Numbered from the stretch's first letter, positions 5,372 to 23,647 are shown. The stretch: DNA of 64,000 bases from Candidatus Hydrogenedentota bacterium (GCA_963745075.1 CAVUWV010000013.1:1-64000), one strand, 5' to 3'. Numbers and translations are program-made. Notes: generated by a model not told the origin, from the sequence alone.

Positions 5372-5392
5372 GAATACCTCTCTTACACGTCA

Positions 5393-6715
5393 TCAGCCAG
5401 GGATCGGACTGTACTTATTGTATACGAACTTCTCAAGCCGGGCCCGTACCGGGTCCACTTCGATTTGGTTTACCACTTCGTCGGCAAAGCCATAGGTCAA
5501 CATCCCGAGGGCCATGGCTTCGCTCATGCCGCGGGTCTGAAAGTAAAACACCAATTCCTTGGGCGGGCGGCCCACCGTTGCGCCATGCGTGCACTTCACA
5601 TCGTCAGCGAAGATTTCGAGCAGCGGTTTCGTGTCGATAGTGGCTTTGTCCGACAACACCATATTCTGGTTCAACTGATTGGAATCCGTCTTCTGTGCGT
5701 CGCGCCGGACCATGACCCTACCGCTAAAGACACCGTGGCTTTTGTCCTGCAATACGCCCTTGTATCCGATCCAGCTCGTGCAATTGGGTTTCGCGTGGTC
5801 GATGGACGTCGCGTTGTCGACGAGTTGATCGCCGTCCGTCATGTACAACCCATTGAGCGACGCATGGGCGCCTTCGCCGTCCAGCACCACGCTGAGATCG
5901 TTCCGGGCAATCTTGCCGCCCTGAAAGATGGAAAACGACTTGAATGTGCTGTCGCGATCCTGATGCACGCGGGTCGACGAGAGATGATAGCCGTTCGTGC
6001 TCTCGTGGAGCAGTTTGTACAACGTCAACTTCGCGCCTTCGTCCAGACTAATCTCCGTAACCGCGTTCTTGAAGTACGTCTTGTCGCCTGCGAGGCTCAC
6101 GTGGCTTTCCACGATCGTGGTCTCCGAATGGCGGTCCGCGACGATCAGGTTTCGAGGATAAGAAGCTGTGCCGCCATCCTGTCCGGTCGAAACGAAGAGC
6201 AGATGAACCGGAGCTGCGGCCATGTGATCTTTCGCGATGTGGACGCACGCGCCGTCTAACAGGAACGCCGTGTTCAACTCGGTGAACGCGTTTCCGGAAC
6301 CGTTCAGGTAGCGATTCAAGTGTTTCTCGACCAACTCGCCGTCCTTAGACAGCGCCTCCGCCAAACTACCGGCTTGCACCTTGCCTGCCGGGCTCGACAA
6401 ATCGGGCGCGAAGAACCCGTCCACAAACACGAGTTCGCACCAGTTGGGTTCGCCGTAGCGGAACGGCGCGACATCCTTCGCCGAAAGCCCGTGAGCGGCC
6501 GGTTCCACAGGGGAGCGGAACGGCGTCCGGATGACGGGCGCAACGTTGGTGAAGCGCCATTGCTCCATCTTCCGATGAGGGAATTCGATTGCCGTGAACC
6601 GATCGATGGCCTGCCGCCGCAACGTATTCACCCAGTCCTGTGTGGCGGGTTTCAGCCGTTCCAGGTCGGTAAGGTAATGCGTCTTATTTTCAACGCGTTC
6701 CGCGATTTCAGCCAT
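5393..6715 (-). CDS. sufD: Fe-S cluster assembly protein SufD
   Basis: EQWRFT; C-terminal KPLLEIFADDVKCTHGAT; lies between sufC and sufS. Confidence 0.93.
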   Translation of the reverse strand: MAEIAERVENKTHYLTDLERLKPATQDWVNTLRRQAIDRFTAIEFPHRKMEQWRFTNVAPVIRTPFRSPVEPAAHGLSAKDVAPFRYGEPNWCELVFVDGFFAPDLSSPAGKVQAGSLAEALSKDGELVEKHLNRYLNGSGNAFTELNTAFLLDGACVHIAKDHMAAAPVHLLFVSTGQDGGTASYPRNLIVADRHSETTIVESHVSLAGDKTYFKNAVTEISLDEGAKLTLYKLLHESTNGYHLSSTRVHQDRDSTFKSFSIFQGGKIARNDLSVVLDGEGAHASLNGLYMTDGDQLVDNATSIDHAKPNCTSWIGYKGVLQDKSHGVFSGRVMVRRDAQKTDSNQLNQNMVLSDKATIDTKPLLEIFADDVKCTHGATVGRPPKELVFYFQTRGMSEAMALGMLTYGFADEVVNQIEVDPVRARLEKFVYNKYSPIPG

Positions 6716-6749
6716 GGTGAGCCGTAAACTCCTCGTACAACGCGGTCAG

Positions 6750-7505
6750 TCAGACCGCGGCGAATTCTGATTTCACCCAGTCGTAGCCCTTTTCTTCGAG
6801 TTCGAGGGCCAATTCTTTCCCGCCCGACTTCACGATGCGCCCTTTATAGAGGACGTGCACGAAATCCGGCACAATGTAGTTGAGCAAGCGCTGGTAGTGC
6901 GTGACCACGATCATGGACCGCTTAGGGCCGCGCAGCTTGTTGACCCCGTCCGCGACGATGCGCAGGGCGTCGATGTCGAGCCCCGAATCCGTTTCGTCGA
7001 GGATGGCCAGCCGTGGCTCCAGCACCGCCATTTGGAGAATTTCATTGCGCTTCTTTTCGCCGCCGGAAAATCCTTCATTTACCGGCCGGTTCGCGAACGA
7101 GGGATCGATCGCCACCATCTCCATTTTCTCTTTCAAGAGTTCCTGAAAATCCATTGCATCGAGTTCTTCGATGCCGTGACTTTTCCGAATTTCATTCAAG
7201 CCGGCTTGCAGGAAGTATGCGTTCGAGATGCCCGGTATTTCGACGGGATACTGAAACGCCATGAACAAGCCAAGCCGCGCCCGTTCTTCGGCGGGCATTT
7301 CCAGGAGGTCTTTGCCGAGAAACGCAACCTCGCCCTCGGAAACCTCGTACTCTTCGTTTCCCGCGAGGACTTGTGCGAGGGTGCTTTTCCCGGAACCGTT
7401 CGGCCCCATGATGGCGTGCACTTCGCCGTCCTTGATCGTAAGGCTCACGCCTTTGAGGATCTCCACGCCTTCCACGCTCGCGTGCAGATTCGAAATCTCC
7501 AGCAT
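6750..7505 (-). CDS. sufC: Fe-S cluster assembly ABC ATPase SufC
   Basis: GPNGSGKST, FQYPVEIPG, FSGGEKKRNE, LDETDSGLD. Confidence 0.96.
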   Translation of the reverse strand: MLEISNLHASVEGVEILKGVSLTIKDGEVHAIMGPNGSGKSTLAQVLAGNEEYEVSEGEVAFLGKDLLEMPAEERARLGLFMAFQYPVEIPGISNAYFLQAGLNEIRKSHGIEELDAMDFQELLKEKMEMVAIDPSFANRPVNEGFSGGEKKRNEILQMAVLEPRLAILDETDSGLDIDALRIVADGVNKLRGPKRSMIVVTHYQRLLNYIVPDFVHVLYKGRIVKSGGKELALELEEKGYDWVKSEFAAV

Positions 7506-9026
7506 CTATCCAACACTCCCTTCCAGGCTGACGCCCAGCAATTTCGTCGCCTCGACGGCGAACTCCATGGGCAGGTGATCGAACACTTCCTTGCAGAAAC
7601 CGTTAATGACCATCGAAATCGCGTCCTCGGGGCCGATGCCGCGCTGTTTGCAATAGAACAACTGGGCTTCGCTGATTTTTGAGGTCGACGCTTCGTGTTC
7701 CACGTTCGCGGTGTTGTTACGCACCTCGATGTAGGGGAACGTGTGCGCGCCGCATTGGTCCCCGATGAGCAAGGAGTCGCACTGCGTGTAGTTGCGCGCG
7801 CTCGACGCCTTGGGCATGACCATGACCTGGCCGCGGTAGCTGTTGTTGCCGTGGCCCGCGGAAATCGTTTTCGAGATGATCGTGCTCCGCGTGTTTTTGC
7901 CCATGTGCACCATCTTGGTGCCGGTGTCCGCCTGCTGGCGAAGGTTACTCACGGCAACCGAGTAGAACTCGCCGACCGAGTTATCGCCCATCAGCAGGCA
8001 GCTCGGATACTTCCACGTAATGGCCGAACCGGTTTCGACCTGGGTCCAGGAAATCCGCGAATTGCGGCCCTGGCACTTGCCCCGTTTCGTCACGAAGTTG
8101 TAAATGCCGCCCTTACCGTCTTTGTCGCCCGCGTACCAGTTCTGGACCGTCGAGTAGTTGATGGTCGCATCGTCCAAGGCGACCAGTTCCACGACTGCGG
8201 CGTGCAATTGGTTCTCATCGCGCATGGGCGCGGTGCACCCTTCCAGGTAGTTTACGTACGCGCCTTCTTCGGCGACGATCAGGGTGCGTTCAAACTGTCC
8301 TGTACCCGCAGCGTTGATGCGGAAATACGTCGAAAGATCCATCGGGCACCGCACGCCTTTCGGGATGAAGCAAAAGGAGCCGTCGGAAAACACCGCCGAA
8401 TTTAACGCGGCGAAGAAGTTATCGTTCGCCGGCACTACGGAACCCAGATACTGCTTCACCAAATCCGGATGATTTTTAACGGCTTCGGAGAAAGAGCAGA
8501 AGATAATGCCCTTTTTCGCGAGGATTTCGCTGTGGGTTGTGGCAACGGACACACTGTCAAAGACTGCGTCCACCGCGACGCCGGACAGGCGTTTCTGTTC
8601 TTCCAGCGGAATCCCGAGCTTCTCGAAGGTTTCGAGGAGTTCTTTGTCAACCTCATCGAGACTGCTCAAGGGTTTCTTGTCGCGTTTTGGGGCGGAGTAG
8701 TAATGCTGAGCCTGGTAATCAATTACCGGGTAGGTGACGTTCGCCCAGCGGGGCTCGGTCATGGTCTGCCAATGCCGAAAGGCTTTCAGGCGCCATTCGA
8801 GCAGCCATTCGGGCTCTTCCTTCTTAGCCGAAATCACCCGAATTACGTCTTCGTTCAGGCCGCGTTCGATGGTCTCGGACTCGATGTCCGTAGTCCACCC
8901 GAACTTATAGCTCTGATTGGCCAACTCCGCAATCTCGCGATTGCTCTGTTCGACACGCGTACCGGTGTAAGCCTTGTCCTCGTCCGATTCATTAACTGCC
9001 GGCGTGTCTACTTTCGGAGTGCTCAT
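7506..9026 (-). CDS. sufB: Fe-S cluster assembly protein SufB
   Basis: [43 protein letters not shown]. Confidence 0.96.
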
Positions 9027-9344
9027 TCTTGCACCTCTTTAGTTCTACTGAACGCACCGCGCGGGCGCGGCAATTCATCTCTTTTATATGTAACAACTGG
9101 GTTGGCCTCAATTGTTTCGCTCGCAGCAGGCGAAAAGGCGGCTGATGCCGAATCGGACACAATGCGCGACCCGCCCTTCTCTCGTGAAGTAGTCAGCCGT
9201 GCCCAGGATGAGGTCCCCAACCGCGTCTGGCATGACGCCGAATCCAACCCTATTCTGTGGTTAGAACATCGTTGGGTAACTCCATATTCCCGAAGCAGTT
9301 CGGTTTGATGGAATTGCGGCCTTTGGGAACTATCGCGCCGCGTT

Positions 9345-10439
9345 CTACACCCCGAATCGCCGGCCTTCGTCCAACATTATCAAGTAGTTGTCTAACGGAA
9401 GGTAGTTCGTCACGCTGTTTCCGGTTCCAAGGCAATAGCCCCCGCCCGGCATACACAGTTCCAGTGTCGAACGCACCCGGTTTCGGATCTCCTTATCCGT
9501 TGCCCGGCACAAGAAGTCGATGTCGATACCGCCCAACAGGGCGATACGGTCGCCGTACGCTGTTTTTGCGTCGGTGACACTTTCGATGGTGTCTTCGAAC
9601 GAGTGCTTGGCGTCGATTCCGATTTCCTCGATGAGGTCGTCCATGATGAGGTCGATTTTTCCGCAGCAATGCAGGAGGTACGGCCGGCCCGCAGCATGGG
9701 AGCGTTCCGCCATCCGTTTGTGCCCGGGAAGCACGAATTCGCGCAGGTCGTCCGGACCGATCAGGAGGCCCGTCCGGAACCCCATGTCGTCGCTGCCCCA
9801 AACGATCTTGACGCGGTCAAATTCGAGGATGCGGTCGATGATTACGTCGTACATGTCGACCAGCCGTTGAGCGATGGCCGCCACCAGATCGCGCTGCTCA
9901 TAGAGCGCGATACAGAGCGTTTCATACCCCATCAGCCACGTCAGATACTCAGCGAAATGGGCGAACCCCCCGCTGCCGACGACGCACATGTCGTCCGGCA
10001 AGTTTTTCTCGTACCACTCCAGGGACCGCGTGGAAGCCTTTTGCGGGTCCGGCCACGGGTACGATTCAAATTCTTGCCAGTTCGTGATCGGACCCTTGTG
10101 CTCGTTGACGTAGTCGCGACCCTCCGCACGGCGCAGCCCGGCGGTGTCGTCCGCCTTGTCGTAGCGCAACGGCATGACGTGGTCCTCGACGCCCATGCGA
10201 ACGTAGTCGTAGCCGAGGAAGCGTTGAATGGCGATTTGGCGTTTCTGCGCGAAGTACGGGTCGGATGGCGACAGATCCCGTGTCAGGTCGAACCGCTGAT
10301 TGACTGCCTCCTGCACTTCCGGATCGAGGAAAAGCTCGATGTTGTAGACCCGATCCGGGGTACGATCTCGCGCAATACAACGGGTCAGCCCCTCCCAATC
10401 CGGGCGGACTTCGCGGTCAAAGGTGGAAAATGTGCCCAT
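9345..10439 (-). CDS. Uroporphyrinogen decarboxylase (URO-D/CIMS-like) family protein
   Basis: SDDMG, LHCCG, LLGGID, LGTGNS motifs of the URO-D/methyltransferase-like TIM barrel; substrate unknown. Confidence 0.8.
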   Translation of the reverse strand: MGTFSTFDREVRPDWEGLTRCIARDRTPDRVYNIELFLDPEVQEAVNQRFDLTRDLSPSDPYFAQKRQIAIQRFLGYDYVRMGVEDHVMPLRYDKADDTAGLRRAEGRDYVNEHKGPITNWQEFESYPWPDPQKASTRSLEWYEKNLPDDMCVVGSGGFAHFAEYLTWLMGYETLCIALYEQRDLVAAIAQRLVDMYDVIIDRILEFDRVKIVWGSDDMGFRTGLLIGPDDLREFVLPGHKRMAERSHAAGRPYLLHCCGKIDLIMDDLIEEIGIDAKHSFEDTIESVTDAKTAYGDRIALLGGIDIDFLCRATDKEIRNRVRSTLELCMPGGGYCLGTGNSVTNYLPLDNYLIMLDEGRRFGV

Positions 10440-10711
10440 GCATCCCCCAAGTGTGCCTGCCGATTACTCTGTCTTGGCGAGTGCGCCAAAAACGGATGCA
10501 CTCACAAATCACATAGTATACGCCATTTGTGTGAACCAGTCACATTCGATCGACGGTTCATAAACCACCCGGGATAATAGTTCTTGGAAAAATGGGCAAA
10601 GCCCGGTATTCTACGGGCGGTGGCTGCGACGGATTGAATCCAAGACCGATACTGTAAACACATAGTCGGCGGTTTATCGCATTATTCTTATTTTGTCCGC
10701 ATGTGGGGAGA

Positions 10712-11548
10712 ATGCCTGTGGATCCCATTCAGGAGTTTGTTGATTCCGAGGAAAAGGCCTCTATCCTGCCCACCTGGAATCTTGAGACCTTCTTGCGGAA
10801 TCACCCGGTGCTTTACCAGGTTCTGTACTCGGTGCTTGCGCTGGTCTTAGGCGTATCCAGGGGCTGCGGAACGGGTCCCTGCACCGAGGGTCAATTCGAC
10901 ACCCATATGTACCGGTATCCCTTGGAATTGGCGAGCGGGCACCGGTGCTACGAACTCTACGTGACCGATACCTACGACCCGAACCAAGCGTGGCCCTTAA
11001 TTCTGTTCGGACACGGCGTTCTCGAGTCGGGGGATGACGGCTACGCTCATTTGTCGGTGGGGATCGGACCGGCGCTGTCCAATTTCCCGCAGAATTACCC
11101 GTGCCTCGTTGCCATGCCTCAGCTCCCGTGGAACGTCACCGAGGAAGAGACCAAAGCCATCTACGACGCAACACTGGCGGATGTGCAGGCGCGCTACGCC
11201 ATTGACCCGAACCGGATCTACATGACGGGCATTTCGTATGGTGCGGCGGCGACGTGGCATTACGCTGCGATCAATCCCGGTGTATTTGCAGCGATTCTTC
11301 CCATCGCCGGGTCGGGGCGGAGGGCGGACATCCCCGCATTACTGGACATTCCGATCCGGACCTTTGCCGCGCAAAACGACGAACTGGGGGATACGACGAA
11401 GTGGGAGACATTTGTTCAGGAACTTGAGGATGCGGGCGCGGACATTACGGCTTCCGTATTGCCTGGTAGTTCACATGACATCTGGGATCGGGTGTACCGA
11501 AGTCAGGATGTGATCAATTGGCTTCTGTCGCAATCGCTGGGGCCGTAA
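10712..11548 (+). CDS. Alpha/beta hydrolase (esterase/peptidase-like) with an N-terminal hydrophobic segment
   Basis: PLILFGHG, IDPNRIYMTGISYG (GxSxG), candidate Asp (QNDE) and His (SSHDIW); start uncertain (10703/10712/10718). Confidence 0.8.
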   Translation: MPVDPIQEFVDSEEKASILPTWNLETFLRNHPVLYQVLYSVLALVLGVSRGCGTGPCTEGQFDTHMYRYPLELASGHRCYELYVTDTYDPNQAWPLILFGHGVLESGDDGYAHLSVGIGPALSNFPQNYPCLVAMPQLPWNVTEEETKAIYDATLADVQARYAIDPNRIYMTGISYGAAATWHYAAINPGVFAAILPIAGSGRRADIPALLDIPIRTFAAQNDELGDTTKWETFVQELEDAGADITASVLPGSSHDIWDRVYRSQDVINWLLSQSLGP

Positions 11549-11582
11549 TCCGGGATGCGATACGCAACGTGCCGGCACATGA

Positions 11583-11619
11583 GACCGCCGCGCTCCGATT
11601 TTTTGGGGGCGCGGCGGTC
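11583..11619. terminator. Hairpin between the convergent hydrolase and ahcY genes
   Basis: GACCGCCGCGCTCC ... GGGGCGCGGCGGTC inverted repeat. Confidence 0.55.
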
Positions 11620-11643
11620 GTTGGTCTGGTATGCGGCGCTACT

Positions 11644-13095
11644 CTAGTAGCGGTAGTGATCGGGTTTATAAGGCCCTTCGACGGGAATACCAAGATATTC
11701 CGCCTGTTTGTCAGACAACAGGTCGAGTTTGGCCCCGAGTTTACCCAAGTGCAATCGCGCGACCTCCTCGTCGAGAACCTTCGGCAGTGTGTAGACCTTA
11801 CCAACTTCGTATTGGTCCATTTGCGTCGCGAGTGAAACCTGCGCGAGGGTCTGGTTCGCAAACGAATTCGACATCACGAACGATGGGTGGCCGGTGGCGC
11901 AGCCCAGATTGACCAAGCGTCCCTTCGCCAGGAGAATGATCGACTTGCCGTCCGGGAAGATGAACTTGTCCACCTGCGGCTTGATGTTAAGTTCCGTGAG
12001 ATTGCCTTTGGATGCTTCCGATTCGAGCCAGGCAACTTCAATTTCAGAATCGAAGTGGCCGATGTTGCAAACGATGGCTTCGTCCTTCATGTTCTTGAGG
12101 TGTTCCCGGCGGATGACGTCGCAGCAGCCGGTGGTCGTCACGAAGATATCGCCCTTCGACGCCGCCTCGTCCATCGAGAGAACCTCGTAGCCCTCCATGC
12201 AGGCCTGCAGGGCGCAGATCGGGTCGATCTCGGTAATGAGCACGCGTGCGCCCAAGCCTTTCATGGCGTCCGCACATCCCTTGCCGACGTCACCGTAGCC
12301 GGCCACGACGACGACCTTACCCGCGACCATGACGTCCGTAGCGCGTTTGATGCCGTCGGCGAGCGACTCCCGGCAGCCGTATAGGTTGTCGAACTTGGAC
12401 TTGGTCACGGAGTCGTTTACGTTGATCGCCCGGGTGAGCAAGGTGCCGGCCTTCATCATGTGATACAGCCGGTGCACCCCCGTCGTGGTTTCTTCCGACA
12501 CGCCGGCCCAATCCGTGACGTACTCGTGCCACTTGTTCGGCATCTCGGCGTGCACGCTATGGAGCAGCCGGTCGACGATCTCAACTTCCTGGTTTTCCGT
12601 GCTGACGTCGGGAAGTTTGCCGGATTTCGCAAACGCATCTTCAAACTGATATCCGCGATGGATTAACAGCGTTGCATCGCCGCCGTCGTCCACGATCAGG
12701 TTGGGTCCACTTCCGTCGGGCCAGGTCATGGCCTGGAGCGTGCACCACCAGTACTCTTCGAGGGTTTCGCCTTTCCAGGCGAAGACGGGATAGCCGGCCT
12801 TCGCAATCGCGGCCGCAGCGTGATCCTGGGTCGAGTAGATATTGCAGCTTGCCCAGCGTACGTCGGCGCCCAAGGCACCGAGCGTTTCGATGAGCACCGC
12901 GGTCTGAATGGTCATGTGCAGGGAACCCATGATCCGCTGGCCTTTCAACGGCTGTTGCGCGGCATAGCGTTCGCGGATCGCCATGAGACCGGGCATTTCC
13001 TTTTCCGCCATTTCGATCTCTTTGCGGCCCCAGTCGGCCAGACCCAGATCGGCGACCTTGTAGTCGGATTGTTTCTCGAGCGTTGCAGGACTCAT
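11644..13095 (-). CDS. ahcY: Adenosylhomocysteinase (SAH hydrolase)
   Basis: [52 protein letters not shown]-terminal HYRY; GGAGG 10 nt before the ATG at 13095. Confidence 0.97.
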
Positions 13096-13147
13096 CGTAT
13101 GCATTCCTCCTTGGATTCAGGGACGCTGTCGCCCCGCTGATTGCCAT

Positions 13148-13906
13148 TCAAGAATTGTTTCGGTTCTCGAGTGAACCGCTGATGCCGAGTTCGCAGATTT
13201 CCACCGGCCGGTCGATGTCCAGAAAATTCACCCGGGCCGTTTGCCCGATGGTGACCGGAAGCGTCTGTGCTTTCGCCATGGTCTTTGGCGCCGCCACGCC
13301 AGTTTCCGCGTGCTTCTCCGCCCATTCGAGGGTCAGAAACGCCAGATTAACCGTGGAACCCATAATATCAGGGCGTGCGTAATCCGGGTGGCCAACCGAC
13401 CCGAGGTATATCTCACCGCTGCTCAAGCCGATTCGCAGATCCGGTCCGATGAGTACCTTGGCTTCGCCCGCCGTTTCCAACGCCCGCTCGGCGTGATTCG
13501 TTCCCGAAAAGAACGCGAGGTAGCGGTCGCCCATGTATTTTACGGGAATGCCGTCGTGCCGCAGCGTAATCTCCGTCAACTGATAAAACTGGCCGTTGGC
13601 CCAAATTGCAAAATCCCGGGCGGGGATGGCCAGGGATTTTTCGTACGCGCCGGAAATGCTACTCACCAGCACGCTGGCCTGGAAAACGTCCAGTCCTTCG
13701 TCCCGGGCCCCCAACAGCCAATCGACCGATACGTCAAGGAGCTTGGCCAAGGGTCCGAGGATGGCGATATCGGGGGCGTTTTCGCCGCGCTCCCACTTCG
13801 ATACGGCCTGGGGGCTCACGTTCAACGCGTTCGCAATATCCTGCTGTTTCAAGCCGCGTTTTTCGCGCTTGGACCGGATTCGTTTCGCTAAATCGGTTAG
13901 CAGCAT
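13148..13906 (-). CDS. XRE-family HTH regulator fused to a degenerate class III nucleotidyl-cyclase domain
   Basis: N-terminal 'GLKQQDIANALNVSPQAVSKWERGENAPD' HTH; C-terminal VKYMGD, LRIGLSSG and PDIMGSTVNLA cyclase-like motifs; likely start ATG 13906. Confidence 0.85.
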   Translation of the reverse strand: MLLTDLAKRIRSKREKRGLKQQDIANALNVSPQAVSKWERGENAPDIAILGPLAKLLDVSVDWLLGARDEGLDVFQASVLVSSISGAYEKSLAIPARDFAIWANGQFYQLTEITLRHDGIPVKYMGDRYLAFFSGTNHAERALETAGEAKVLIGPDLRIGLSSGEIYLGSVGHPDYARPDIMGSTVNLAFLTLEWAEKHAETGVAAPKTMAKAQTLPVTIGQTARVNFLDIDRPVEICELGISGSLENRNNS

Positions 13907-13939
13907 CGTTTGACCCTTGAGCCGTTTGGATTCTGTCAA

Positions 13940-13968
13940 AGTCTAGAACATACCCATCCGAATGACAA
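13940..13968 (-). promoter_or_regulatory. Sigma70-type promoter for the regulator-ahcY operon
   Basis: Minus strand TTGTCA-N17-TAGACT. Confidence 0.55.
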
Positions 13969-14290
13969 TGACGCATTCGTTGTACCTGCTCTCGGGGCGG
14001 TTGACTGTCGCGACCGGGCGAACCGGACGCCCAAAGGCGCGCGTTGCGATTTGTAAGCCGTACTTCCGAACCGATGTTGCGCGCGCACGTCAGGCGCTGG
14101 AGGCTTCGAAAAGTCTTGCGCCTAAACGTTGCGGCACGAAAGAAATCAAAAAATTTTCTTGTGATTTCAATCGTGCGAAATTTCTCTAAATCCAGTTTTC
14201 TAAACCACCTGCGTTTAATATTCCCGTTCCGGAGTCTATGAGGCTGATACAGTTACCGACGAATCGCGAAATAGATCGCGAAAATTTTTG

Positions 14291-14319
14291 TTGACTTTCA
14301 CGGTAAGAGTGAGTAAACT
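14291..14319 (+). promoter_or_regulatory. Sigma70-type promoter for the ACIII/oxidase operon
   Basis: TTGACT-N17-TAAACT preceded by an A/T-rich tract. Confidence 0.6.
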
Positions 14320-14607
14320 CGCGCCTCCCTGAGTGATGGGCACGAGCAACGCTTCGGTAGGTCGTTGCGGGGTAGCCCGAAGTTCTTCGGGTTCTCACCA
14401 TTGCAGTTGGGGTTGTTCGACAAGGTTTCCTGTGTGGATTGCGATCTGCGAGAGAGCCCTGTCAACGAATAGAGCAAGGCTGACCCGGTACTGGCGCCGG
14501 GGCAATTTACCGAACGACATAGCGTAAGAGATTTCTGTTTGTGCGACGGTAACGAGTGCAGGCTTTTACCGTTCACGCGCATCTGCTGAACGTCAAGAGG
14601 TATTCAG

Positions 14608-15264
14608 GTGGCACAGATTTTCCCGTCCAGTATGAACACGGTGGCCCGTGTCAGCATTATCGGGGGGATACTTTTCCTGGGAGTGGCCGGCTCCGCTGCC
14701 ATGAAGCTTTATTGGTCTCCCGTAGTGACGCGGGTCAATATTGCCCGCGACCAGACCGTACCTTTCAGCCACCGGCACCACGTGAATTCGATGGGGATCG
14801 ATTGCCGGTTCTGCCACACCTCGGTTGAGGATGGGGTATTCGCGGGGATACCGCCGACGGAAACGTGTATGACGTGTCACTCGCAGGTATGGACGGAGGC
14901 TCCGATGCTGGAACCGGTCCGCCAGAGCTGGGCGACGGGTGAACCGTTGGAATGGGTGCGGGTCAATGACTTGCCCGACTTCGTCTATTTTAACCACAGC
15001 ATCCACATCAACAAGGGCATCGGGTGCGTGACCTGTCACGGGCAAGTGAACGACATGCCGTTGACGTCCAAAGCGAACACGCTTCACATGCGGTGGTGTC
15101 TGCAATGCCACCGGGCGCCCGAAAAATTCATCCGGCCGAAGGAAGAAGTGTTCAACATGAACTGGCGACCGACGGAAAACCAACTTGAGATGGGTAACCG
15201 GCTCGTCAAAGAATACGAAATCAACAAGGAGCAGTTGACCAACTGTTCGGTGTGTCACCGATGA
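14608..15264 (+). CDS. actA: Alternative complex III pentaheme cytochrome c subunit
   Basis: N-terminal TM helix; five CxxCH (CRFCH, CMTCH, CVTCH, CLQCH, CSVCH); PFSHRHH. Confidence 0.93.
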   Translation: MAQIFPSSMNTVARVSIIGGILFLGVAGSAAMKLYWSPVVTRVNIARDQTVPFSHRHHVNSMGIDCRFCHTSVEDGVFAGIPPTETCMTCHSQVWTEAPMLEPVRQSWATGEPLEWVRVNDLPDFVYFNHSIHINKGIGCVTCHGQVNDMPLTSKANTLHMRWCLQCHRAPEKFIRPKEEVFNMNWRPTENQLEMGNRLVKEYEINKEQLTNCSVCHR

Positions 15265-18200
15265 GCGGTAACAATCCAGGTGAAAACTCCACTGTGAATA
15301 CGGACGAAAAGAACGCCAAGGCACTGAATCTGGACGCGGTTCGCGAGAATCTCAAGGGGCAGAACGGCCCCGAGTATTGGCGCGGGCTGGAACAACTCGC
15401 GGATACGGAAGGGTTTCGCGACTTTCTGTACCGGGAGTTTCCCCGTGAAGCTTCGGTTATGGAAAGCGGCGTGGATCGGCGAGGGTTTCTCAAGGTGATG
15501 GGGGCGTCGTTGGCGCTTGCGGGCCTGAGTTCGTCCTGCGCCCGTCAGCCGACCGAACACATCATCCCTTACGTGAAGGCGCCGAAGGAGATGGTGCCGG
15601 GCATTCCCATGTATTTCGCCACGGCAATGCCCGTCTCCGGGTACGCCATTGGCTTGTTGGCGGAGAGCCATGAAGGGCGCCCCACGAAGGTTGAGGGGAA
15701 TCCGCATCATCCCGGGAGTACTTCCAACGGCGGCACCGATATTTTTTCTCAAGCATCCGTACTGACGCTTTACGATCCGGATCGTTCGTCGACCCCCTTG
15801 AAGCTGGGACGAATCACGACCTGGGACACCTTTGCGACGGCGATGGATGTGTTGATCAACGGCGAAAAGGACTCGGCGGGCGTAAAGATCGGCGAAGGGC
15901 TTCGCGATCATGGCGGCGCGGGGCTGCGGATTCTGACGGAGACCGTCACGTCGCCGACGCTTGGCGCGGGAATTCAGGGCTTGTTGGAAGTTATGCCGGG
16001 GGCCCGCTGGCATCAGTACGAACCGGTCAATCGCGATGCCGTACGTGAAGGCGCCAAAGAGGCGTTCGGCGAGTACGTCGAGACGCGATACGATTTCACG
16101 AAGGCCGATGTGGTGCTGTCCCTGGACGCCGATTTCCTCGGGTCCGGGCCCGGCTGCGTGCGTTACGCGAATGACTTTGCCAAGCGCCGGGCAATCGAAG
16201 GCGCTGACGCGCACATGAACCGGATGTACGCGGTGGAAAGTTCGCCGTCGTTGACGGGCGCCATGGCGGACCATGCAATCCACGTCCAGCCGAGTCAGGT
16301 TGAGGTTGTTGGCCGGGCGATCGCCCGGGCGCTTGGGGCTGACGCACCCGGTCCGGAGGTGGAAGGCGAGCATCGGGCGTGGGTGGCGGCGGTTGCGGCC
16401 GATTTGAAGAAGCATCAGGGTAATTGCCTTGTTATTGCCGGCGACGGTCAGCCTGCGGGCGTTCATGTGCTTGCGCACGTGATGAACGATGTCTTGGGCA
16501 ACGTCGGAAACGGCGTCGTGTATACCGAGCCCGTCGAAGTCGAGCCTACGAATCAGCTCGAGTCGTTGCGTGAACTCGTGCGCGACATGGAAGCCGGCAA
16601 GGTCAATACGCTGGTCATCATCGACGCGAACCCGGTCTATAACGCTCCGGGGGATATCGACTTCCTCGCGGCGATGCAAAACGTAAGTCACCGCATTCAT
16701 TTGGGCCTGTATTTGGACGAAACCGGTGAGCAGTGTCACTGGCATGTCCCCGAGGCGCATTACCTCGAGGCATGGGGGGACACCCGGGCCTACGATGGCA
16801 CTGTCAGCATCATACAGCCGCTGATCATGCCTCTGTACAACGGCAAGACGGCGCAGGAAATGATCGCGGTCGTCTCGGGAAAAACCGGGAACGCGTTTGA
16901 CCTTGTTCGGAAGCATTGGCAGCGGATTTATCGTGAGGCCGACTTCGACCAGTATTGGCACACCGCCCTCAGTAATGGCTACATGGAAGGCACGGCGTAC
17001 CCGGCCAAAGCGGTAGCGCTCCAGCAGAATGCGATACGCGAGTTCGCGGAAACGACCGGAAAAGGGGATTTTGAAGTTGTTTTCCGGCCGGATCCGACGA
17101 TTGGCGACGGTCGCTGGGCCAACAACGGCTGGCTGCAGGAGCTTCCGAAGCCGCTCACGAAGTTGACGTGGGACAACGCCGTCATGGTCAGCTTCAACAC
17201 CGCGAAAGCGCAAGGTTTCACCAACTTCGACGTGGTTGAAGTGAAGCTTGGAGACCGGACGGCTAAGGGCCAGGTCTGGGTTCAGCCGGGCCATCCGGAT
17301 AACACGGTGACGCTGCACCTGGGGTACGGCCGGACGCGGGCCGGCAAGGTGGGCGATGGGGCCGGGTTTAACGCGTACACGGTGCGCACCGCTGACGCCA
17401 TGTCCTTTGCGTCTGGCGTTCAACTGCGCCGCATCAGTTCGGGCGCGCAGTTCGCCCGGACGGAGTTGCACAATACCCTCACGCAGGAAGGGCGCCCGCT
17501 GGCGCGCGTCGGAACGCTGCACGAGTACGAAGAGCATCCTGAATTCGCGCAGCATATGAGCCACGCCCCCGCGGCGGACACGACCTTGTTCCCCAAGATG
17601 GAGTACGACGGATACGCGTGGGCGATGAACATCGACCTGAACGTGTGTACGGGATGCAACGCTTGCACGATTGCCTGTCAGGCTGAAAACAACATCCCCG
17701 TCGTCGGACGCGAGCAGGTGATCGCCCAGCGTGAAATGCACTGGATTCGCGTGGACCGGTATTACAAAGGCGATCCGGCCGGCGAACCCGAGGTGGTGCA
17801 CCAGCCGGTGCCGTGTCAACAGTGTGAGAACGCGCCCTGCGAGGTGGTCTGTCCGGTCGCCGCGACGGTTCACAGCAAGGAAGGTCTCAACGACATGGTA
17901 TACAACCGGTGTGTAGGGACCCGCTATTGTTCGAACAACTGCCCGTACAAAGTGCGGCGGTTTAACTTCCTCATGTATTCCGACATTACGACCCCCGTCA
18001 GACAGATGGGGTACAACCCTGACGTGACGGTTCGTTGGCGCGGCGTTATGGAAAAATGCACGTACTGCGTCCAGCGCATCAATCTCGCGCGCATCGCCGC
18101 CAAGAAAGGGCGCCGCAAAGTGCGCGACGGCGAAATTGTCACGGCTTGTCAGGCGGTTTGCCCTGCCGGAGCAATCGTGTTCGGAGATATCAGCGATCCC

Positions 18201-18359
18201 GAAAGCCGCGTATCGAAACTGAAACAGGGACCGCGCAATTACGCGCTGTTGGACGACGTCAACACGCGGCCGCGCACCACGTATCTGGCTAAACTTCGTA
18301 ACCCCAACCCCGAGCTTGAGGCGCCTACGACACATGGCAGTGGTACAGAACAAACTTAA
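15261..18359 (+). CDS. actB: Alternative complex III molybdopterin-oxidoreductase-like/Fe-S fusion subunit
   Basis: YWRGL, Tat motif RRGFLK, GRPTKVEGNP; C-terminal ferredoxin motifs (CTGCNAC, CQQCENAPC, CVGTRYC, CTYC); ATGA overlap with actA. Confidence 0.93.
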   Translation: MSGNNPGENSTVNTDEKNAKALNLDAVRENLKGQNGPEYWRGLEQLADTEGFRDFLYREFPREASVMESGVDRRGFLKVMGASLALAGLSSSCARQPTEHIIPYVKAPKEMVPGIPMYFATAMPVSGYAIGLLAESHEGRPTKVEGNPHHPGSTSNGGTDIFSQASVLTLYDPDRSSTPLKLGRITTWDTFATAMDVLINGEKDSAGVKIGEGLRDHGGAGLRILTETVTSPTLGAGIQGLLEVMPGARWHQYEPVNRDAVREGAKEAFGEYVETRYDFTKADVVLSLDADFLGSGPGCVRYANDFAKRRAIEGADAHMNRMYAVESSPSLTGAMADHAIHVQPSQVEVVGRAIARALGADAPGPEVEGEHRAWVAAVAADLKKHQGNCLVIAGDGQPAGVHVLAHVMNDVLGNVGNGVVYTEPVEVEPTNQLESLRELVRDMEAGKVNTLVIIDANPVYNAPGDIDFLAAMQNVSHRIHLGLYLDETGEQCHWHVPEAHYLEAWGDTRAYDGTVSIIQPLIMPLYNGKTAQEMIAVVSGKTGNAFDLVRKHWQRIYREADFDQYWHTALSNGYMEGTAYPAKAVALQQNAIREFAETTGKGDFEVVFRPDPTIGDGRWANNGWLQELPKPLTKLTWDNAVMVSFNTAKAQGFTNFDVVEVKLGDRTAKGQVWVQPGHPDNTVTLHLGYGRTRAGKVGDGAGFNAYTVRTADAMSFASGVQLRRISSGAQFARTELHNTLTQEGRPLARVGTLHEYEEHPEFAQHMSHAPAADTTLFPKMEYDGYAWAMNIDLNVCTGCNACTIACQAENNIPVVGREQVIAQREMHWIRVDRYYKGDPAGEPEVVHQPVPCQQCENAPCEVVCPVAATVHSKEGLNDMVYNRCVGTRYCSNNCPYKVRRFNFLMYSDITTPVRQMGYNPDVTVRWRGVMEKCTYCVQRINLARIAAKKGRRKVRDGEIVTACQAVCPAGAIVFGDISDPESRVSKLKQGPRNYALLDDVNTRPRTTYLAKLRNPNPELEAPTTHGSGTEQT

Positions 18360-19722
18360 GGACGTCGATCCTCAGCCTCCACTTTTGGAGCCCGGACACA
18401 CGTACGGCTCGCTGACCGATAAGGTCAGTGAGGTTGTCGATACGAAGCCGCATCCGCGGGCGTGGATCTTCGCGTTCGGCGTGGCATCGTTATTCGTGCT
18501 CCTGCTACTCAACGCTATCGGGTACCTCTTCGCGAAGGGCGTGGGAATCTGGGGTATTAATATCCCGGTTGCCTGGGGTTGGGCCATCATCAACTTCGTG
18601 TGGTGGATCGGTATCGGCCACGCAGGAACGCTGATATCCGCGATTCTGTTGTTGTTGATGCAGGACTGGCGGACGTCCATCAACCGTTTCGCCGAAGCGA
18701 TGACCTTGTTCGCCGTGGCGTGCGCGGGTTTGTTCCCCTTGCTTCACCTGGGCCGGCCATGGGTGTTCTACTTCATTCTGCCGTATCCCAACTCGATGGC
18801 GTTGTGGCCGCAGTTCCGCAGCCCCTTGGTGTGGGACGTGTTCGCCATTTCGACGTACGGAACGGTGTCCGCCCTCTTCTGGTACACCGGGTTGGTGCCG
18901 GACCTGGCCGGCATGCGCGACCGTGCGAAGAATAAGTTCGCACGAATCCTCTTTGCCATGGGCGCCCTGGGATGGCGGGGCTCGGCGCGGCATTGGTCCC
19001 GTTACGAAATGGCGTACTTGCTGCTGGCCGGCATCTCGACGCCGCTGGTCGTCTCGGTGCACAGCGTGGTGAGCTTGGACTTCACCGTCGGCATCGTTCC
19101 CGGGTGGCATACGACGATTTTTCCGCCGTACTTCGTTGCGGGGGCCGTGTACGCGGGATTCGCCATGGTGCTTACCCTGGCAATCCCGGTGCGCAAGCTT
19201 TATCACATCGAAGATATCATCACGATGAAGCATATCGACAACATGGCCAAGGTCATGTTGGTGACCGGGCTGATCGTGTTGTACGGGTACGCGGCGGAAG
19301 CGTTTTTTTGCTGGTACAGCGGGAATCCTTACGAGCGCTACATGATGTTCAGCAATCGGATGACGGGCTATTATGCGTGGTCCTACTGGGCGCTCATTTT
19401 CTGCAACGGGATGGTGCCCCAACTGTTGTGGTTTAAGAAGATCCGTTTCAATACCTATATCTTGTGGGGTATTACGCTGATCGTTGGCGTCGGAATGTGG
19501 TTGGAGCGTTACGTCATCGTAGTAACCAGCCTTGCGCGCGATTTCGTCCCCTCGTCCTGGGGGAATTATCACGGTACGTTTTGGGATTGGGCGACGTTCC
19601 TTGGCACCCTGGGATTCTTCCTGTTCCTGTTCCTGATCTTCATCCGGTTCGTGCCCATGATATCGGTATTTGAATTGAAGATGCTGTTGCACCAGAAAAA
19701 GCAGCAGGGTTCCCATGAGTAA
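18334..19722 (+). CDS. actC: Alternative complex III NrfD-family quinol-binding subunit
   Basis: NFVWWIGIGHAGTLISA, SINRFAE, HLGRPW, SPLVWD, GWHTTIFPPYFVAGA. Confidence 0.93.
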   Translation: MAVVQNKLKDVDPQPPLLEPGHTYGSLTDKVSEVVDTKPHPRAWIFAFGVASLFVLLLLNAIGYLFAKGVGIWGINIPVAWGWAIINFVWWIGIGHAGTLISAILLLLMQDWRTSINRFAEAMTLFAVACAGLFPLLHLGRPWVFYFILPYPNSMALWPQFRSPLVWDVFAISTYGTVSALFWYTGLVPDLAGMRDRAKNKFARILFAMGALGWRGSARHWSRYEMAYLLLAGISTPLVVSVHSVVSLDFTVGIVPGWHTTIFPPYFVAGAVYAGFAMVLTLAIPVRKLYHIEDIITMKHIDNMAKVMLVTGLIVLYGYAAEAFFCWYSGNPYERYMMFSNRMTGYYAWSYWALIFCNGMVPQLLWFKKIRFNTYILWGITLIVGVGMWLERYVIVVTSLARDFVPSSWGNYHGTFWDWATFLGTLGFFLFLFLIFIRFVPMISVFELKMLLHQKKQQGSHE

Positions 19723-19740
19723 GTCGAGGACACACTAGGG

Positions 19741-20301
19741 ATGCACGCAGATAACGAATCACACGACGACGGCCCGAAGGTGTACGGCATGGTCGCCGAG
19801 TTCGATGACCCCGATGTCGTCCTCTCGGCCGCGCAGCGCACCTATAAGGAAGGGTACCGTCAGTTCGAAGCCTATACCCCGTTTCCGATTCACGGACTGG
19901 ACGAGGCCGTCGGATTCAAGAAGAACATGGTCGCACCGGTCGTCCTGATAGGCGGACTCGCCGGCGCCTCGACCGGATTTCTCATGCAATACATCGCAAC
20001 GTGTTTGCACTACCCGTACCTGATCGGGGGCCGTCCCCTGATGAGTTGGCCCATGTACATACCGATTACCTTCGAGTTGGGGATTCTGTTTGCGGCGTTC
20101 TCCGCTTTCATCGGGATGTTCGCAATGAACGGACTGCCCATGCCGTATCACCCGATTTTCAACGCGCCGCGCTTCGAACTTGCGACGCGCGACGCTTTCT
20201 TTCTATGCATTGAAGTCACCGACGACAAATACGACGAGGGAGAGACCCGGACCTTCCTGGAGGGTCTTGGGGCCAAGCAAGTGTCGGTGGTGGAACAATG
20301 A
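19741..20301 (+). CDS. actD: Alternative complex III subunit D (DUF3341-like)
   Basis: AYTPFPIHGLD, IGGRP, PITFELGIL; two TM helices. Confidence 0.9.
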   Translation: MHADNESHDDGPKVYGMVAEFDDPDVVLSAAQRTYKEGYRQFEAYTPFPIHGLDEAVGFKKNMVAPVVLIGGLAGASTGFLMQYIATCLHYPYLIGGRPLMSWPMYIPITFELGILFAAFSAFIGMFAMNGLPMPYHPIFNAPRFELATRDAFFLCIEVTDDKYDEGETRTFLEGLGAKQVSVVEQ

Positions 20302-20963
20302 TGGCGACGAAACGAGAGGACCTCATGCGCCGGTATCATGGCGATGTACGAGTAGTAAGAACGCGGTGGGTGGTCGTCGCGCTGGCCGCGGCCGTCCTGG
20401 CGGGGGCCTCGGGGTGCCATCAGGGCATGTGGGATCGCAGCCACTACAAGCCTTTGGAGAAGGCGGAGTTTTCGCCGTTCTTCGACAACGGCCGGACGGC
20501 GCTGCCGCTGCCTGAGAATACGGTTTCGTACCAGGCGCCGGGCCTGGACGACTTTTACTATACCGGCAAGATCGACGGCGAATACGCGACGGTATTCCCG
20601 TTTGAAGTAACCCGCGAAGTTCTCGAACGGGGGCGGGACCGGTTCAACATCCACTGCGCGCCGTGCCACAGTCCGCTGGGTAACGGCAACGGCATGATCG
20701 TGCAACGCGAGATGAAGAAAGCCGGGGACTACCACATCAAACGTCTGCGCGAAGCCGGGCCCGGCTACTTTTTTGACGTGATGACCAATGGTTTTGGAGT
20801 CATGTACAGCGCGGCGTTTCGCGTGCCGCCGGAAGATCGGTGGGCGATCGCGTCGTACATCCGCGTGCTTCAATTCAGCCAACATGCAAATATCGATGAC
20901 CTTCCTCCGGACGTTCCGCGCGAAGGTCATGAATCCGCAGCCGGAATCAACCGAAACAAGTGA
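20298..20963 (+). CDS. actE: Alternative complex III monoheme cytochrome c lipoprotein
   Basis: Lipobox-like LAGASGC; CAPCH; DRWAIASYIRVLQ. Confidence 0.9.
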   Translation: MMATKREDLMRRYHGDVRVVRTRWVVVALAAAVLAGASGCHQGMWDRSHYKPLEKAEFSPFFDNGRTALPLPENTVSYQAPGLDDFYYTGKIDGEYATVFPFEVTREVLERGRDRFNIHCAPCHSPLGNGNGMIVQREMKKAGDYHIKRLREAGPGYFFDVMTNGFGVMYSAAFRVPPEDRWAIASYIRVLQFSQHANIDDLPPDVPREGHESAAGINRNK

Positions 20964-22192
20964 TTAAGCGAATCATGCAGCACACTGACAGCGACCATCC
21001 TAAAATAGACCAATTGCAGAAGCGCGCGGGCATCGCCGCAATCGCCGGTGTCGTGGTTTGCGTGATAGGCGCATTCCTTGCGGGTGCGACGCAATTCTTT
21101 CAGTCCTATCTTTATGCGTTTCTCTTCTGGAACGGGCTGGGACTGGGGTGTCTGTCGGCGCTCATGCTGCACCACCTGGTCCAGGGACGGTGGGGATTCA
21201 TGATACAGCGCATACTCGAGGCCGGCGCCAAGACCCTGGTGGTGACGGCGGTGCTGTTCCTGCCGATTCTGTTTTATGGGGCAAAGTTGATTTACCCGTG
21301 GATGCCCGGCGGCGCGTTGGCGGGCAGCGAGGCGGTGCTTCAAAAAGTCCAGTACCTGAATCCAACGTTTTTCACCATCCGCGCGATTATCTATTTCGCC
21401 GTGTGGATCGGTTTGACGCTCGTATTGACCCGCGCATCGAGGAAACTGGACGAGACCGGCGATCAGCGGCTTTGCCTGCGGATGCGCTGGACCAGCGGCC
21501 CCGGGTTGGTGGCCTACATGGTTACGCTAACCTTCGCAATGACCGACTGGGGAATGTCCCTCGAACCGGATTGGTTTAGCACGATATACGAGCCCTTGTT
21601 TCTGGTGGGATATGCGCTGGCGTGCTTGGCCTTTTCAACCATAATTCTGTCGAAGGTTGCCAAGGACAAGCCCCACTCGGAGGTCATGTCCACGGACTAC
21701 TTCCACCATTTGGGCAGTCTGATGTGCGGATTTGTCGTGCTTTGGTCGTACATGGCGTTCTCGCAGTTCCTGATCACGTGGTCGGGCAACCTGCCTGAAG
21801 AGATTCCCTGGTACCTGAACCGGCAAAGCCCCGGACTGAACCTGATTGCGCTTATCCTGATCCTGTTTCACTTTGCGCTGCCTTTGTTCATTCTCATGCA
21901 GCGGCGGGTGAAGCGCGGAGCGAACGCGCTGGTGGTCATGGCCTTCTGGATTTTCCTGATGCGATTCGTGGACATCTATTGGATCATCATGCCGGCGTTT
22001 CGACCGAAGGAAGTCGGTCTGCACTTCCTCGATATCGCGATGCAAGTGGCCTTTGGCGGCATCTGGATCTATTTCTTTACCGTGCAACTGAAGAAGTGCC
22101 CGCTGCTTCCCCTCAACGATCAGCGGATGACGGCAGCGCTCGCGAAAAGCGGCGGCCACGGCCACCAAGAGGAGGCGGTCGAACATGCATGA
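20960..22192 (+). CDS. actF: Alternative complex III membrane subunit F
   Basis: About 10 TM helices; DWGMSLEPDWFST, SQFLITWSGNLPEEIPWY. Confidence 0.88.
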   Translation: MIKRIMQHTDSDHPKIDQLQKRAGIAAIAGVVVCVIGAFLAGATQFFQSYLYAFLFWNGLGLGCLSALMLHHLVQGRWGFMIQRILEAGAKTLVVTAVLFLPILFYGAKLIYPWMPGGALAGSEAVLQKVQYLNPTFFTIRAIIYFAVWIGLTLVLTRASRKLDETGDQRLCLRMRWTSGPGLVAYMVTLTFAMTDWGMSLEPDWFSTIYEPLFLVGYALACLAFSTIILSKVAKDKPHSEVMSTDYFHHLGSLMCGFVVLWSYMAFSQFLITWSGNLPEEIPWYLNRQSPGLNLIALILILFHFALPLFILMQRRVKRGANALVVMAFWIFLMRFVDIYWIIMPAFRPKEVGLHFLDIAMQVAFGGIWIYFFTVQLKKCPLLPLNDQRMTAALAKSGGHGHQEEAVEHA

Positions 22193-22679
22193 CGACGAAC
22201 AGAAACACACCGATACCGATGAAGACACGGGATACGAGACCCGGGACGTGGCCAGTCCGCTGGTGTTCTGGTCGTTGACTGGACTGGCCATCCTGACCGT
22301 CACTTCGGCAATCTTTGTATTTGGATTCTTTGTCTATCTGCGGAGCAAGCCGAATTGGGCGGCGGCGCCGCCGTCGCCGTTTGCAAGCGAACGCGTGTTG
22401 CCGCCGACCCCGCGGTTGCAGGCCAACCCGCCGATGGAATTGAAGGAATTTAACGAGAACATGGACAAGGCCCTCAACTCGTACGGGTGGGTCGATAAGT
22501 CGGCCGGTATCGCGCACATTCCCGTGGATGTCGCTCTGGATATTCTCGCGAAGCGCGGCCTTCCGTATGGCGCCGAGAACCAGGCGCCGAAGCCGGCCGC
22601 GACGGGTGAGCAAGCGGCGGCGCAGACCCCCGCTTCCGGTTCGAGCGCAACGCCCGCAGACGGGCAGAAACAACAGTGA
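22185..22679 (+). CDS. ACIII-operon single-TM protein (ActG-like)
   Basis: One TM helix, then PRLQANP...YGWVD...HIPVD; lies between actF and SCO. Confidence 0.7.
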   Translation: MHDDEQKHTDTDEDTGYETRDVASPLVFWSLTGLAILTVTSAIFVFGFFVYLRSKPNWAAAPPSPFASERVLPPTPRLQANPPMELKEFNENMDKALNSYGWVDKSAGIAHIPVDVALDILAKRGLPYGAENQAPKPAATGEQAAAQTPASGSSATPADGQKQQ

Positions 22680-23536: not shown

Positions 23537-23647
23537 CGAAGGAAGGCTGAGGTATCGATATTCTCCTTTCCGATGAAAGGGTCGCGTACCGCAATAGATT
23601 TGAACGTCATCATCAATGGAACGAACAGCAGAGTGTTGTAAAGCTTT

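Follow-up and report, generated by a model that had tools for sequence, protein, structure and literature searches.

The window analysed here, a 64,000-nt stretch of a Candidatus Hydrogenedentota genome, carries directly upstream of ahcY a gene whose product joins a DNA-binding head to a domain resembling adenylate cyclase. This raises the questions of which genes such a protein controls, which signal it reads and whether it raises or lowers transcription. The original prediction, made from the sequence of the window, had described it as a sensor of S-adenosylhomocysteine (SAH) or adenosine in which the pocket of a catalytically dead cyclase binds a non-phosphorylated adenosyl ligand.

A helix-turn-helix protein with a degenerate cyclase domain

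The regulator gene (P0001) is located at positions 13148..13906 on the minus strand and encodes 252 amino acids; the plus-strand frame over the same interval is interrupted by stops, whereas the minus-strand ORF is open. A longer version from a TTG start at 13939 was rejected, because the homologs begin at Met1 and position 13939 falls in the predicted promoter. Residues 10–64 (13715..13879, minus strand) form an XRE/Cro-C1 helix-turn-helix (HTH) domain, assigned by homologs and by the Pfam family HTH_3 (61.2 bits against a cut-off of 23). Residues 70–245 (13172..13699, minus strand) form a pseudo-cyclase domain, assigned by structure matches and residue alignment; here, the Pfam family Guanylate_cyc matched residues 106–189 with 19.7 bits, slightly below its cut-off of 21.9. 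With the AlphaFold model (pLDDT 90.1, 68-row alignment), the best Foldseek match was Cya2 (E 9.9e-13), and VIA-align against 48,161 chains gave CyaB with a Z of 22.4 (rmsd 2.2, 174 residues aligned), while the head aligned with P22 c2 at a Z of 12.4 (rmsd 1.8, 66 residues aligned). The predicted fusion of an XRE-type HTH to a class III cyclase domain was borne out by the HTH_3 and CyaB matches. The recognition-helix motif QAVSKWER was almost constant across the family. The nearest named homologs belonged to Candidatus Hydrogenedentota; an NCBIfam search returned no family at its own cut-off, and an ESM Atlas search returned XRE clusters without names.

The functional roles of the active-site positions in class III cyclases are well established. 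Positions in P0001 were assigned via pairwise alignments to Cya2, CyaB and one rhodopsin-cyclase. As originally predicted, the base-selecting Lys (Lys123), the second adenine selector (Asp180), the second metal Asp (Asp127) and the transition-state Asn (Asn187) were kept, whereas the first metal Asp was replaced by Ser83 and the transition-state (catalytic) Arg by Leu191. Residue counts were taken on the best 120 of 907 homologs, 57–100% identical to P0001 over most of its length. Lys123, Asp127, Asp180 and Asn187 were each present in 120/120; position 83 was Ser in 105/120 and Asp in 2/120, and position 191 was Leu in 118/120 and Arg in 0/120. The loss of the KG motif, which had also been predicted, held for P0001 (Leu229-Asp230) but not for the family: in the same best 120 homologs, position 229 was Lys in 42, Arg in 31 and Leu in 26, and position 230 was Gly in 84. 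Judging from these alignments, the loss is a property of P0001 and is not general among its relatives.

The expectation that the same substitutions would be conserved was confirmed for the two catalytic losses in the members linked to methyl-cycle genes (Arg191 in 0/62, Asp83 in 5/62); Asp127, His173, Tyr176, Asp180, Asn187 and Phe190 occurred in 62/62 of these members and Lys123 in 61/62. Among 72 remoter representatives, many of them fragments, Asp83 was found in 11 and Arg191 in 25. The distant members P0137 and P0139 kept the whole catalytic residue set behind the same XRE head (Guanylate_cyc scores of 75 and 57.8 bits) and are possibly active cyclase-regulators. The fragments P0149 and P0145 retained most of the catalytic residues, and in P0180, P0183 and P0193 even the pocket residues were lost. 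The position equivalent to Asp180 was Thr in 16 of the 18 outgroup domains, the nearest intact cyclases by search (one Asp and one Gly in the others); because these are mostly Thr there, Asp180 looks selected in the P0001 family rather than left over. Since the first metal Asp and the Arg are missing from the same chain of P0001, it could form no full site as a homodimer or as either partner of a heterodimer, and the protein is in all probability devoid of cyclase activity. The residue classes of class III cyclases are named in the accessible part of PMC4452763.

A homodimer of P0001 was predicted with a score of 0.62, against 0.00 for the best control (contact agreement between runs at least 68%, pLDDT at least 80). 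The mark applied to this score was reached by 20/30 solved homodimers and 1/23 single chains, and passing it may reflect likeness to solved cyclase homodimers rather than binding. In the predicted dimer, the GHPDY arm (residues 169–178 in the interface) packs against the partner helix 96–116, and the interface contains the invariant Asn104, Gly172, His173 and Tyr176. The pocket residues Lys123, Asp127, Asp180 and Asn187 also fall in the predicted interface, and their roles in ligand binding and dimerisation are therefore inseparable by sequence alone.

P0001 shares with the class III cyclases CyaB (3r5g), CyaC (1wc1) and Cya2 (2w01) the fold (Z 21–22), the dimerisation arm, the predicted homodimer, the Lys selector, the second metal Asp and the Asn. 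It differs from them in the replaced first metal Asp and catalytic Arg, in an Asp at the position that is Thr in its closest intact relatives, in the XRE head and in the family-specific GHPDY form of the arm. Mycobacterial Mclx proteins combine a cyclase homology domain (CHD), NB-ARC and a LuxR HTH, and Mclx2 and Mclx3, which have no catalytic residues, have been proposed as ATP/cAMP sensors (PMC4452763, in the text available). P0001 likewise unites a cyclase homology domain and an HTH in one chain, but the domain order is reversed; the Mclx proteins have a LuxR head, an NB-ARC core and no methyl-cycle link, the same part of that source gives no operator for them, and Pfam gave no NB-ARC or LuxR match in P0001. 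The cyclase fold is reused also in AdvA (7sua) and in P. aeruginosa 6yii, with Z values of 13.2 and 14.1 to the P0001 model. The available text on AdvA presents it as a cell-division protein in which no cyclase activity was found and which has no arm (bioRxiv 10.64898/2026.04.03.716176); neither AdvA nor 6yii is described as a transcription factor in the accessible parts of the sources.

Gene neighbourhood and distribution of the family

The ahcY gene (11644..13095, minus strand), whose product matched TIGR00936 with 637.6 bits, would be the second gene of an operon headed by the regulator and its main target. The 52-nt spacer (13096..13147, minus strand) holds the ahcY ribosome-binding site (13112–13106), and no terminator-like site was listed within it. 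The predicted distance of 52 nt to an ahcY start on the same strand is correct with the ATG at 13095, because this codon lies 10 nt from AAGGAGG (13112–13106), against 1 nt for the alternative ATG at 13104. A respiratory cluster at 14608–26229 (plus strand) is divergent from the regulator and has its own promoter-like site at 14291–14319. It includes a multiheme cytochrome, a molybdopterin-like/Fe-S subunit (Qrc-like) and cytochrome c oxidase subunit I, and resembles alternative complex III with a caa3 oxidase. The suf iron-sulfur assembly genes occupy 4085–9026 of the window (minus strand), with sufB confirmed and its neighbours read off translations.

In the phylum, ahcY lay downstream of the regulator in 29/30 fetched loci, the locus in the window included; the remaining locus stops 58 nt past the match. 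A species-level genome scan across phyla gave ahcY downstream in 13/30 loci, after 50 loci with similarity in the HTH only (L030, L032–L080) were set aside; the labels in this set were Hydrogenedentota, Latescibacterota, Nitrospinota, Planctomycetota, Armatimonadota and others. Among metagenome loci of the regulator, 32/80 contained ahcY. Collapse of 157 regulator loci at 90% identity left 112, and in 62 of these ahcY, metH, metE or a Met-synthase module was located downstream (ahcY in 53). The rest comprised 15 M123/thyX loci, one with thrC, one with adenosine deaminase, 26 with other genes and seven that were too short. Other family members precede metH, metE, homocysteine S-methyltransferase or methyl-THF methyltransferase. 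No downstream gene that was scanned was identified as belonging to de novo methionine biosynthesis or transport.

Several neighbourhoods departed from this arrangement. In the M123 clade, the regulator is followed by a gene for a protein of 123 aa, M123, and then by metE, thyX or methyl-THF methyltransferase. M123 (L018:6756-7124, L020:6767-7138 (P0271) and about 20 further loci) has a hydrophobic N-terminal half and two Cys pairs; it gave no Pfam match, and its Atlas neighbours were hypothetical clusters, some of them largely viral. The regulator with a full operator stands immediately ahead of threonine synthase (TIGR00260), without ahcY, in L009:6756-8147 and L025. Adenosine deaminase follows an operator-less regulator in L011:6988-8028, and a nucleoside transporter follows ahcY in L016:4957-6258, which hints at adenosine handling. 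In L165, L171, L175 and L178, operator-less family members stand ahead of a TRAP transporter pair. Members without an operator or with no pocket residues left suggest that the family may have been turned towards other ligands.

Homologs of P0001 numbered 907 proteins at E ≤0.001, some of which share matches through the HTH alone. The regulator gene was present in 34/135 genomes of Hydrogenedentota, in 14/401 genomes of the phylum of G138 and in 3/251 genomes of the phylum of G135. The family occurs in Hydrogenedentota, Latescibacterota, Planctomycetota, Nitrospinota, Armatimonadota and syntrophic delta-proteobacteria. A tree of the cyclase domain was built on a subset (29 loci, 27 representatives and 18 outgroup domains from intact cyclases). 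In this tree, catalytically intact members branched near the base and the methyl-cycle-linked members formed a derived group, with weak backbone support (62–73).

Putative operator sites and regulon

Upstream of the regulator, a sigma70-type promoter was predicted at 13940..13968 (minus strand; TTGTCA-17-TAGACT). It is preceded by a putative operator of two 15-bp sites (ideal form TCAAC-N5-GTTGA) with a pitch of 21 bp. The distal site (13990..14004, minus strand) is centred at about −64; the proximal site (13969..13983, minus strand), 21 bp downstream of it, is centred at about −43 and stops 1 nt short of the −35 hexamer. With the −10 hexamer taken as −12 to −7, the two sites map to about −71 to −57 and −50 to −36. 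The distal site is near-perfect in the M123 clade and in some planctomycete loci. The region 13907–13975, put forward in the original prediction for binding assays, covers hardly any of the operator span 13969–14004.

A first regular expression for the operator matched 44/57 upstream regions, whereas shuffled sequences gave a mean of 1.1; this first motif took in the TTG of the −35 hexamer, and the operator rule was fixed after the data had been seen. A single 17-bp palindrome, CAAC-N9-RTTG, was rejected, because loci with a perfect TCAAC-N5-GTTGA and the 21-bp repeat assign the TTG to the −35 hexamer. The double site was found in 52/58 scorable methyl-cycle-linked loci, 14/15 M123/thyX loci and 3/26 loci with other downstream genes, and the rule matched 17/2160 shuffled sequences. 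The operator score at the promoter of P0001, a locus outside the training set, was 46.2, against 22.5 for the next-best position in the 6.8-Mb genome. The single-site pattern had matches in 134 of 135 phylum genomes and was thus uninformative, and the single-site matrix gave 603 matches above 10 bits in the genome of P0001 and no usable second target. The distribution of the double site suggests that P0001 very probably regulates this regulon through the TCAAC-N5-GTTGA site.

Sites in trans were scored with a matrix of 39 columns trained on 75 regulator promoters and a cut-off of 15 bits, which was set after the data had been seen. The genome of P0001 contains 20 further sites of at least 15 bits on both strands; at 20 background sites per genome, a site of this strength within a given 450 nt is therefore rare by chance. 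A site of at least 15 bits preceded metH in 13/20 regulator-positive loci against 1/26 negative ones (one dropped per set), a contrast inflated by kinship, since the 13 loci represent five genera of one family and are not independent. Among the metH sites is one in G128:C48 near position 22567. The count becomes 15/23 with the addition of the two loci that had prompted the test and of the genome of P0001 (14.3 bits). The exceptional negative genome with a metH site, G131, is 87% complete, and 7/8 genomes of its genus carry the regulator; in a further negative genome, G098, a single palindrome of 7.6 bits was found before metH. The ahcY contigs of G131 and G098 gave no regulator match, with just 234 and 91 nt present upstream of the gene.

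Where ahcY is unlinked and the regulator lies elsewhere, a site of at least 15 bits was found in 7/23 loci (one dropped), or in nine at 10 bits. These sites preceded ahcY of the close type (7/16) and not of the distant type, 36–43% identical (0/7). In G543, the operator precedes ahcY (G543:C12, near 69225) on another contig than the regulator, and in the M123-clade genomes ahcY remained below 15 bits in all four that were scored. In regulator-negative genomes, the corresponding count for ahcY was 1/23 (three dropped), and the one positive, L235, carries a regulator remnant. In this locus (G087:C174, ~680-975, minus strand), an intact operator and promoter are followed within a very short distance by a regulator reduced to its C-terminal third, and then by ahcY, which represents either an internal deletion or a mis-assembly. 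In L283 (G717:C2:975500-986500), a cluster of operator, ahcY and methyltransferase is followed by a second operator before regulator-metH.

No operator of at least 15 bits preceded metK in 29 loci (one dropped), and metF had an operator in only 1/24 loci (four not scored). The predicted linkage to SAM-cycle genes was clearly upheld by the genes behind the regulator and by the trans sites before metH and unlinked ahcY. In the window, metK (54196–55353, plus strand) lies directly behind rplK (52808–53254) and rplA (53374–54087), and the sequence upstream of metK resembles rplA coding sequence in many loci of the phylum. This order of genes suggests that metK may be co-transcribed with ribosomal protein genes; possibly having no promoter of its own behind rplA, it would perhaps lack an operator for that reason, which is a caveat to the argument for SAH given below. 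In the genome of P0001, no operator sites were found before metK and metF, and the metH candidate was weak (14.3 bits), with a second candidate pair about 216 nt upstream that has no adjacent TTG. On the site scores, the regulator-ahcY operon is the only clear target in this genome. Of 18 regions retrieved around pattern matches, 13 reached no more than 12.2 bits on the full matrix and were set aside as chance matches.

The original prediction regarded the protein as an analogue of SahR on another scaffold. The effector domain of SahR is of the methyltransferase type, whereas P0001 has a cyclase fold, and an XRE head stands in place of the ArsR head of SahR/SamR. P0001 is not SahR: no HTH_5 (ArsR-type) occurred among its 15 Pfam matches to E 0.1, of which HTH_3 was the best. 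A search for ArsR proteins in the same genome gave nine matches, six of them in frames of at most 150 aa and one in an arsenic-resistance-like cluster. In the available text of PMC4239095, SahR/SamR are SAH-responsive regulators of the ArsR family in Proteobacteria, and the SahR core regulon includes metK. As with SahR/SamR, P0001 would be a dedicated and autoregulated transcription factor often encoded beside SAM-cycle genes; linkage and site presence suggest that its family controls ahcY and metH, as SahR does. It differs in its sites, a tandem pair of 15 bp where SahR/SamR have a single palindrome of 20 bp, and in the absence of metK (0/29). The analogy thus held for the target genes ahcY and metH; it did not extend to metK, and the site geometry hints at activation rather than repression.

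Proposed mechanism, signal and sign of regulation

We propose that P0001 is a one-component transcription factor that governs the recycling of SAH and the re-methylation of homocysteine. A dimer would form head-to-tail via the cyclase domains of two subunits, as is usual for cyclases, and two such dimers would occupy the tandem 15-bp sites, 21 bp apart, just upstream of the −35 hexamer of the regulator-ahcY operon; in many genomes the same sites would serve metH or a separately placed ahcY. The pocket, apparently unable to hold a two-metal centre or to stabilise the transition state, retains the adenine-reading Lys/Asp pair together with Asn187 and Asp127, and would bind a non-phosphorylated adenosyl metabolite, with SAH as the first choice. 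The ligand would shift the seating of the HTH heads on DNA, and the ligand-bound form would activate by touching RNA polymerase, in the manner of lambda CI at PRM. AhcY would then clear the SAH signal. Taken jointly, a methyl-cycle regulator with a dead cyclase and an adenosyl ligand is the reading that we favour with moderate confidence.

As for the sign of regulation, the promoter layout makes an activator the more plausible choice, because the sites are fixed at about −43 and −64 and the −10 register persists when the −35 hexamer decays. A TAnnnT hexamer was located at +59 from the operator start in 42/69 promoters, at +60 in 10 more and at +61 in six, and in promoters without the −35 TTG the −10-like hexamer stayed at +59 in 6/7. 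Lambdoid repressors have a peptidase-type C-terminal domain, unlike the cyclase-fold C-terminus of P0001, which moreover stands in a chromosomal metabolic context. The HTH fold is the same (lambda CI; P22 c2 and 434 among the matches), and, like CI at PRM, P0001 has a tandem pair of sites, centred near −43 and −64, before its own gene, from which activation is here inferred only. In the accessible part of PMC1874639, lambda OR2 spans −50 to −34 and OR1 −74 to −58, and CI activates PRM via sigma region 4. It is unlikely, but deserves consideration, that the regulon and the adenosyl ligand are as proposed and P0001 is instead a SahR-like repressor that occludes the −35 hexamer and is released by SAH. 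Protein bound at the proximal site, 1 nt before the −35 TTG, can also repress; the regulator gene stands first in its operon, and negative autoregulation is a frequent arrangement; and in most promoters the −35 hexamer opens with TTG (67, 64 and 65 of 69 for the three bases), so these promoters could work unaided. Against this, the main sites are placed ahead of the −35 hexamer and not over the spacer, the −10 hexamer or the start site, and a steric repressor has no need of the −10 register that is preserved when the −35 decays.

The ligand is likely an adenosyl metabolite, because the adenine Lys and the family-fixed Asp, Asn187 and Asp127 are kept and the metal Asp and Arg are gone. SAH in particular is put forward only tentatively, on the grounds that the target set, made up of ahcY and metH with metF only seldom and metK in no case, agrees with that of the SAH riboswitch. 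SAH riboswitches govern ahcY, metF and sometimes metH, but not metK, according to the available text of Leyn et al. (PMC4239095). The P0001 family would thus resemble the SAH riboswitch (RF01057) in its targets, but it would act through a protein and a DNA operator, with no RNA. Rfam gave no match to E 1 at 9000–16000 of the window, SAH riboswitch included; across 15 loci it gave just two tRNAs, and 20 ahcY loci from genomes without a regulator match yielded no match. An SAH-only model is opposed by the M123 clade, in which ahcY has no site and the regulator heads M123, metE, thyX or methyl-THF methyltransferase, and the methyl-cycle reading as such by the 26/112 loci with unrelated downstream genes.

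The M123 clade also speaks for a signal of another kind acting on the same regulon, either a non-adenosyl or phosphorylated compound (homocysteine, methionine, folate, ATP, cAMP) or a shortage of SAM. Such a signal would agree with the Lys or Arg at position 229 in 73 of the best 120 of 907 homologs and with the existence of a cyclase-like ATP-binding protein (PDB 6yii, in the description available). We consider it improbable, given that both adenine-reading residues are invariant whereas the metal Asp and Arg have been lost, that ahcY is the dominant target (53/112 loci) with metK at 0/29, the SAH-riboswitch pattern, and that no gene of de novo methionine biosynthesis or transport was identified downstream.

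If the cyclase domain were a mere dimerisation scaffold, the regulator would be ligand-independent or controlled by a partner. The invariant Asn104, Gly172, His173 and Tyr176 in the predicted dimer interface would suit this, as would AdvA, which employs a dead cyclase fold for protein contacts; however, AdvA keeps just 2/8 active-site residues and has no arm (bioRxiv 10.64898/2026.04.03.716176, in the text available), whereas in the P0001 family the pocket residues Lys123, Asp127, Asp180 and Asn187, themselves also listed in the predicted interface, are conserved as strongly as the arm, which makes a scaffold very improbable. Least credible is a working, slow adenylate cyclase that would link transcription to ATP status, either by itself or together with another cyclase: the basal members P0137 and P0139 keep all catalytic residues and the genome of P0001 has other class III cyclase loci (three matches in two places), but a chain without the first metal Asp and Arg gives no full site in a homo- or heterodimer, and the Arg is missing in all of the best 120 of 907 homologs.

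The methyl-cycle regulator proposed here represents a real and conserved family, apparently undescribed, of a known kind, the one-component metabolite sensor, on a new scaffold. A literature search, with most subscription journals outside its coverage, returned no title or abstract describing an XRE and cyclase-fold family. It is conceivable, if rather doubtful, that the ancestor of a family of SAH-switched activators was an active adenylate cyclase that had been joined to a phage-repressor head. If this were true, the living members would line this path, with P0137 and P0139 and their full catalytic set at one end and at the other a dead pocket, in which the selector Lys and the newly fixed Asp would read adenine and the homocysteine arm of the ligand would sit in the old place of metals and phosphate. 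In several uncultured phyla, the family would then do with a protein what the SAH riboswitch does with RNA, and a class III cyclase domain would have been recruited to sense a metabolite and to control genes directly. It would also constitute a new sensor scaffold, and would suggest that a sensor role may belong to other degenerate domains with the annotation adenylate cyclase. The family intermediates, from intact to dead active sites, are useful for the study of pseudo-enzyme origin, and a short operator read by an activator that responds to SAH could be used to report methylation potential. For phyla with few cultured members, the analysis offers candidates for a regulator of the methyl cycle, for its operator and for its targets.
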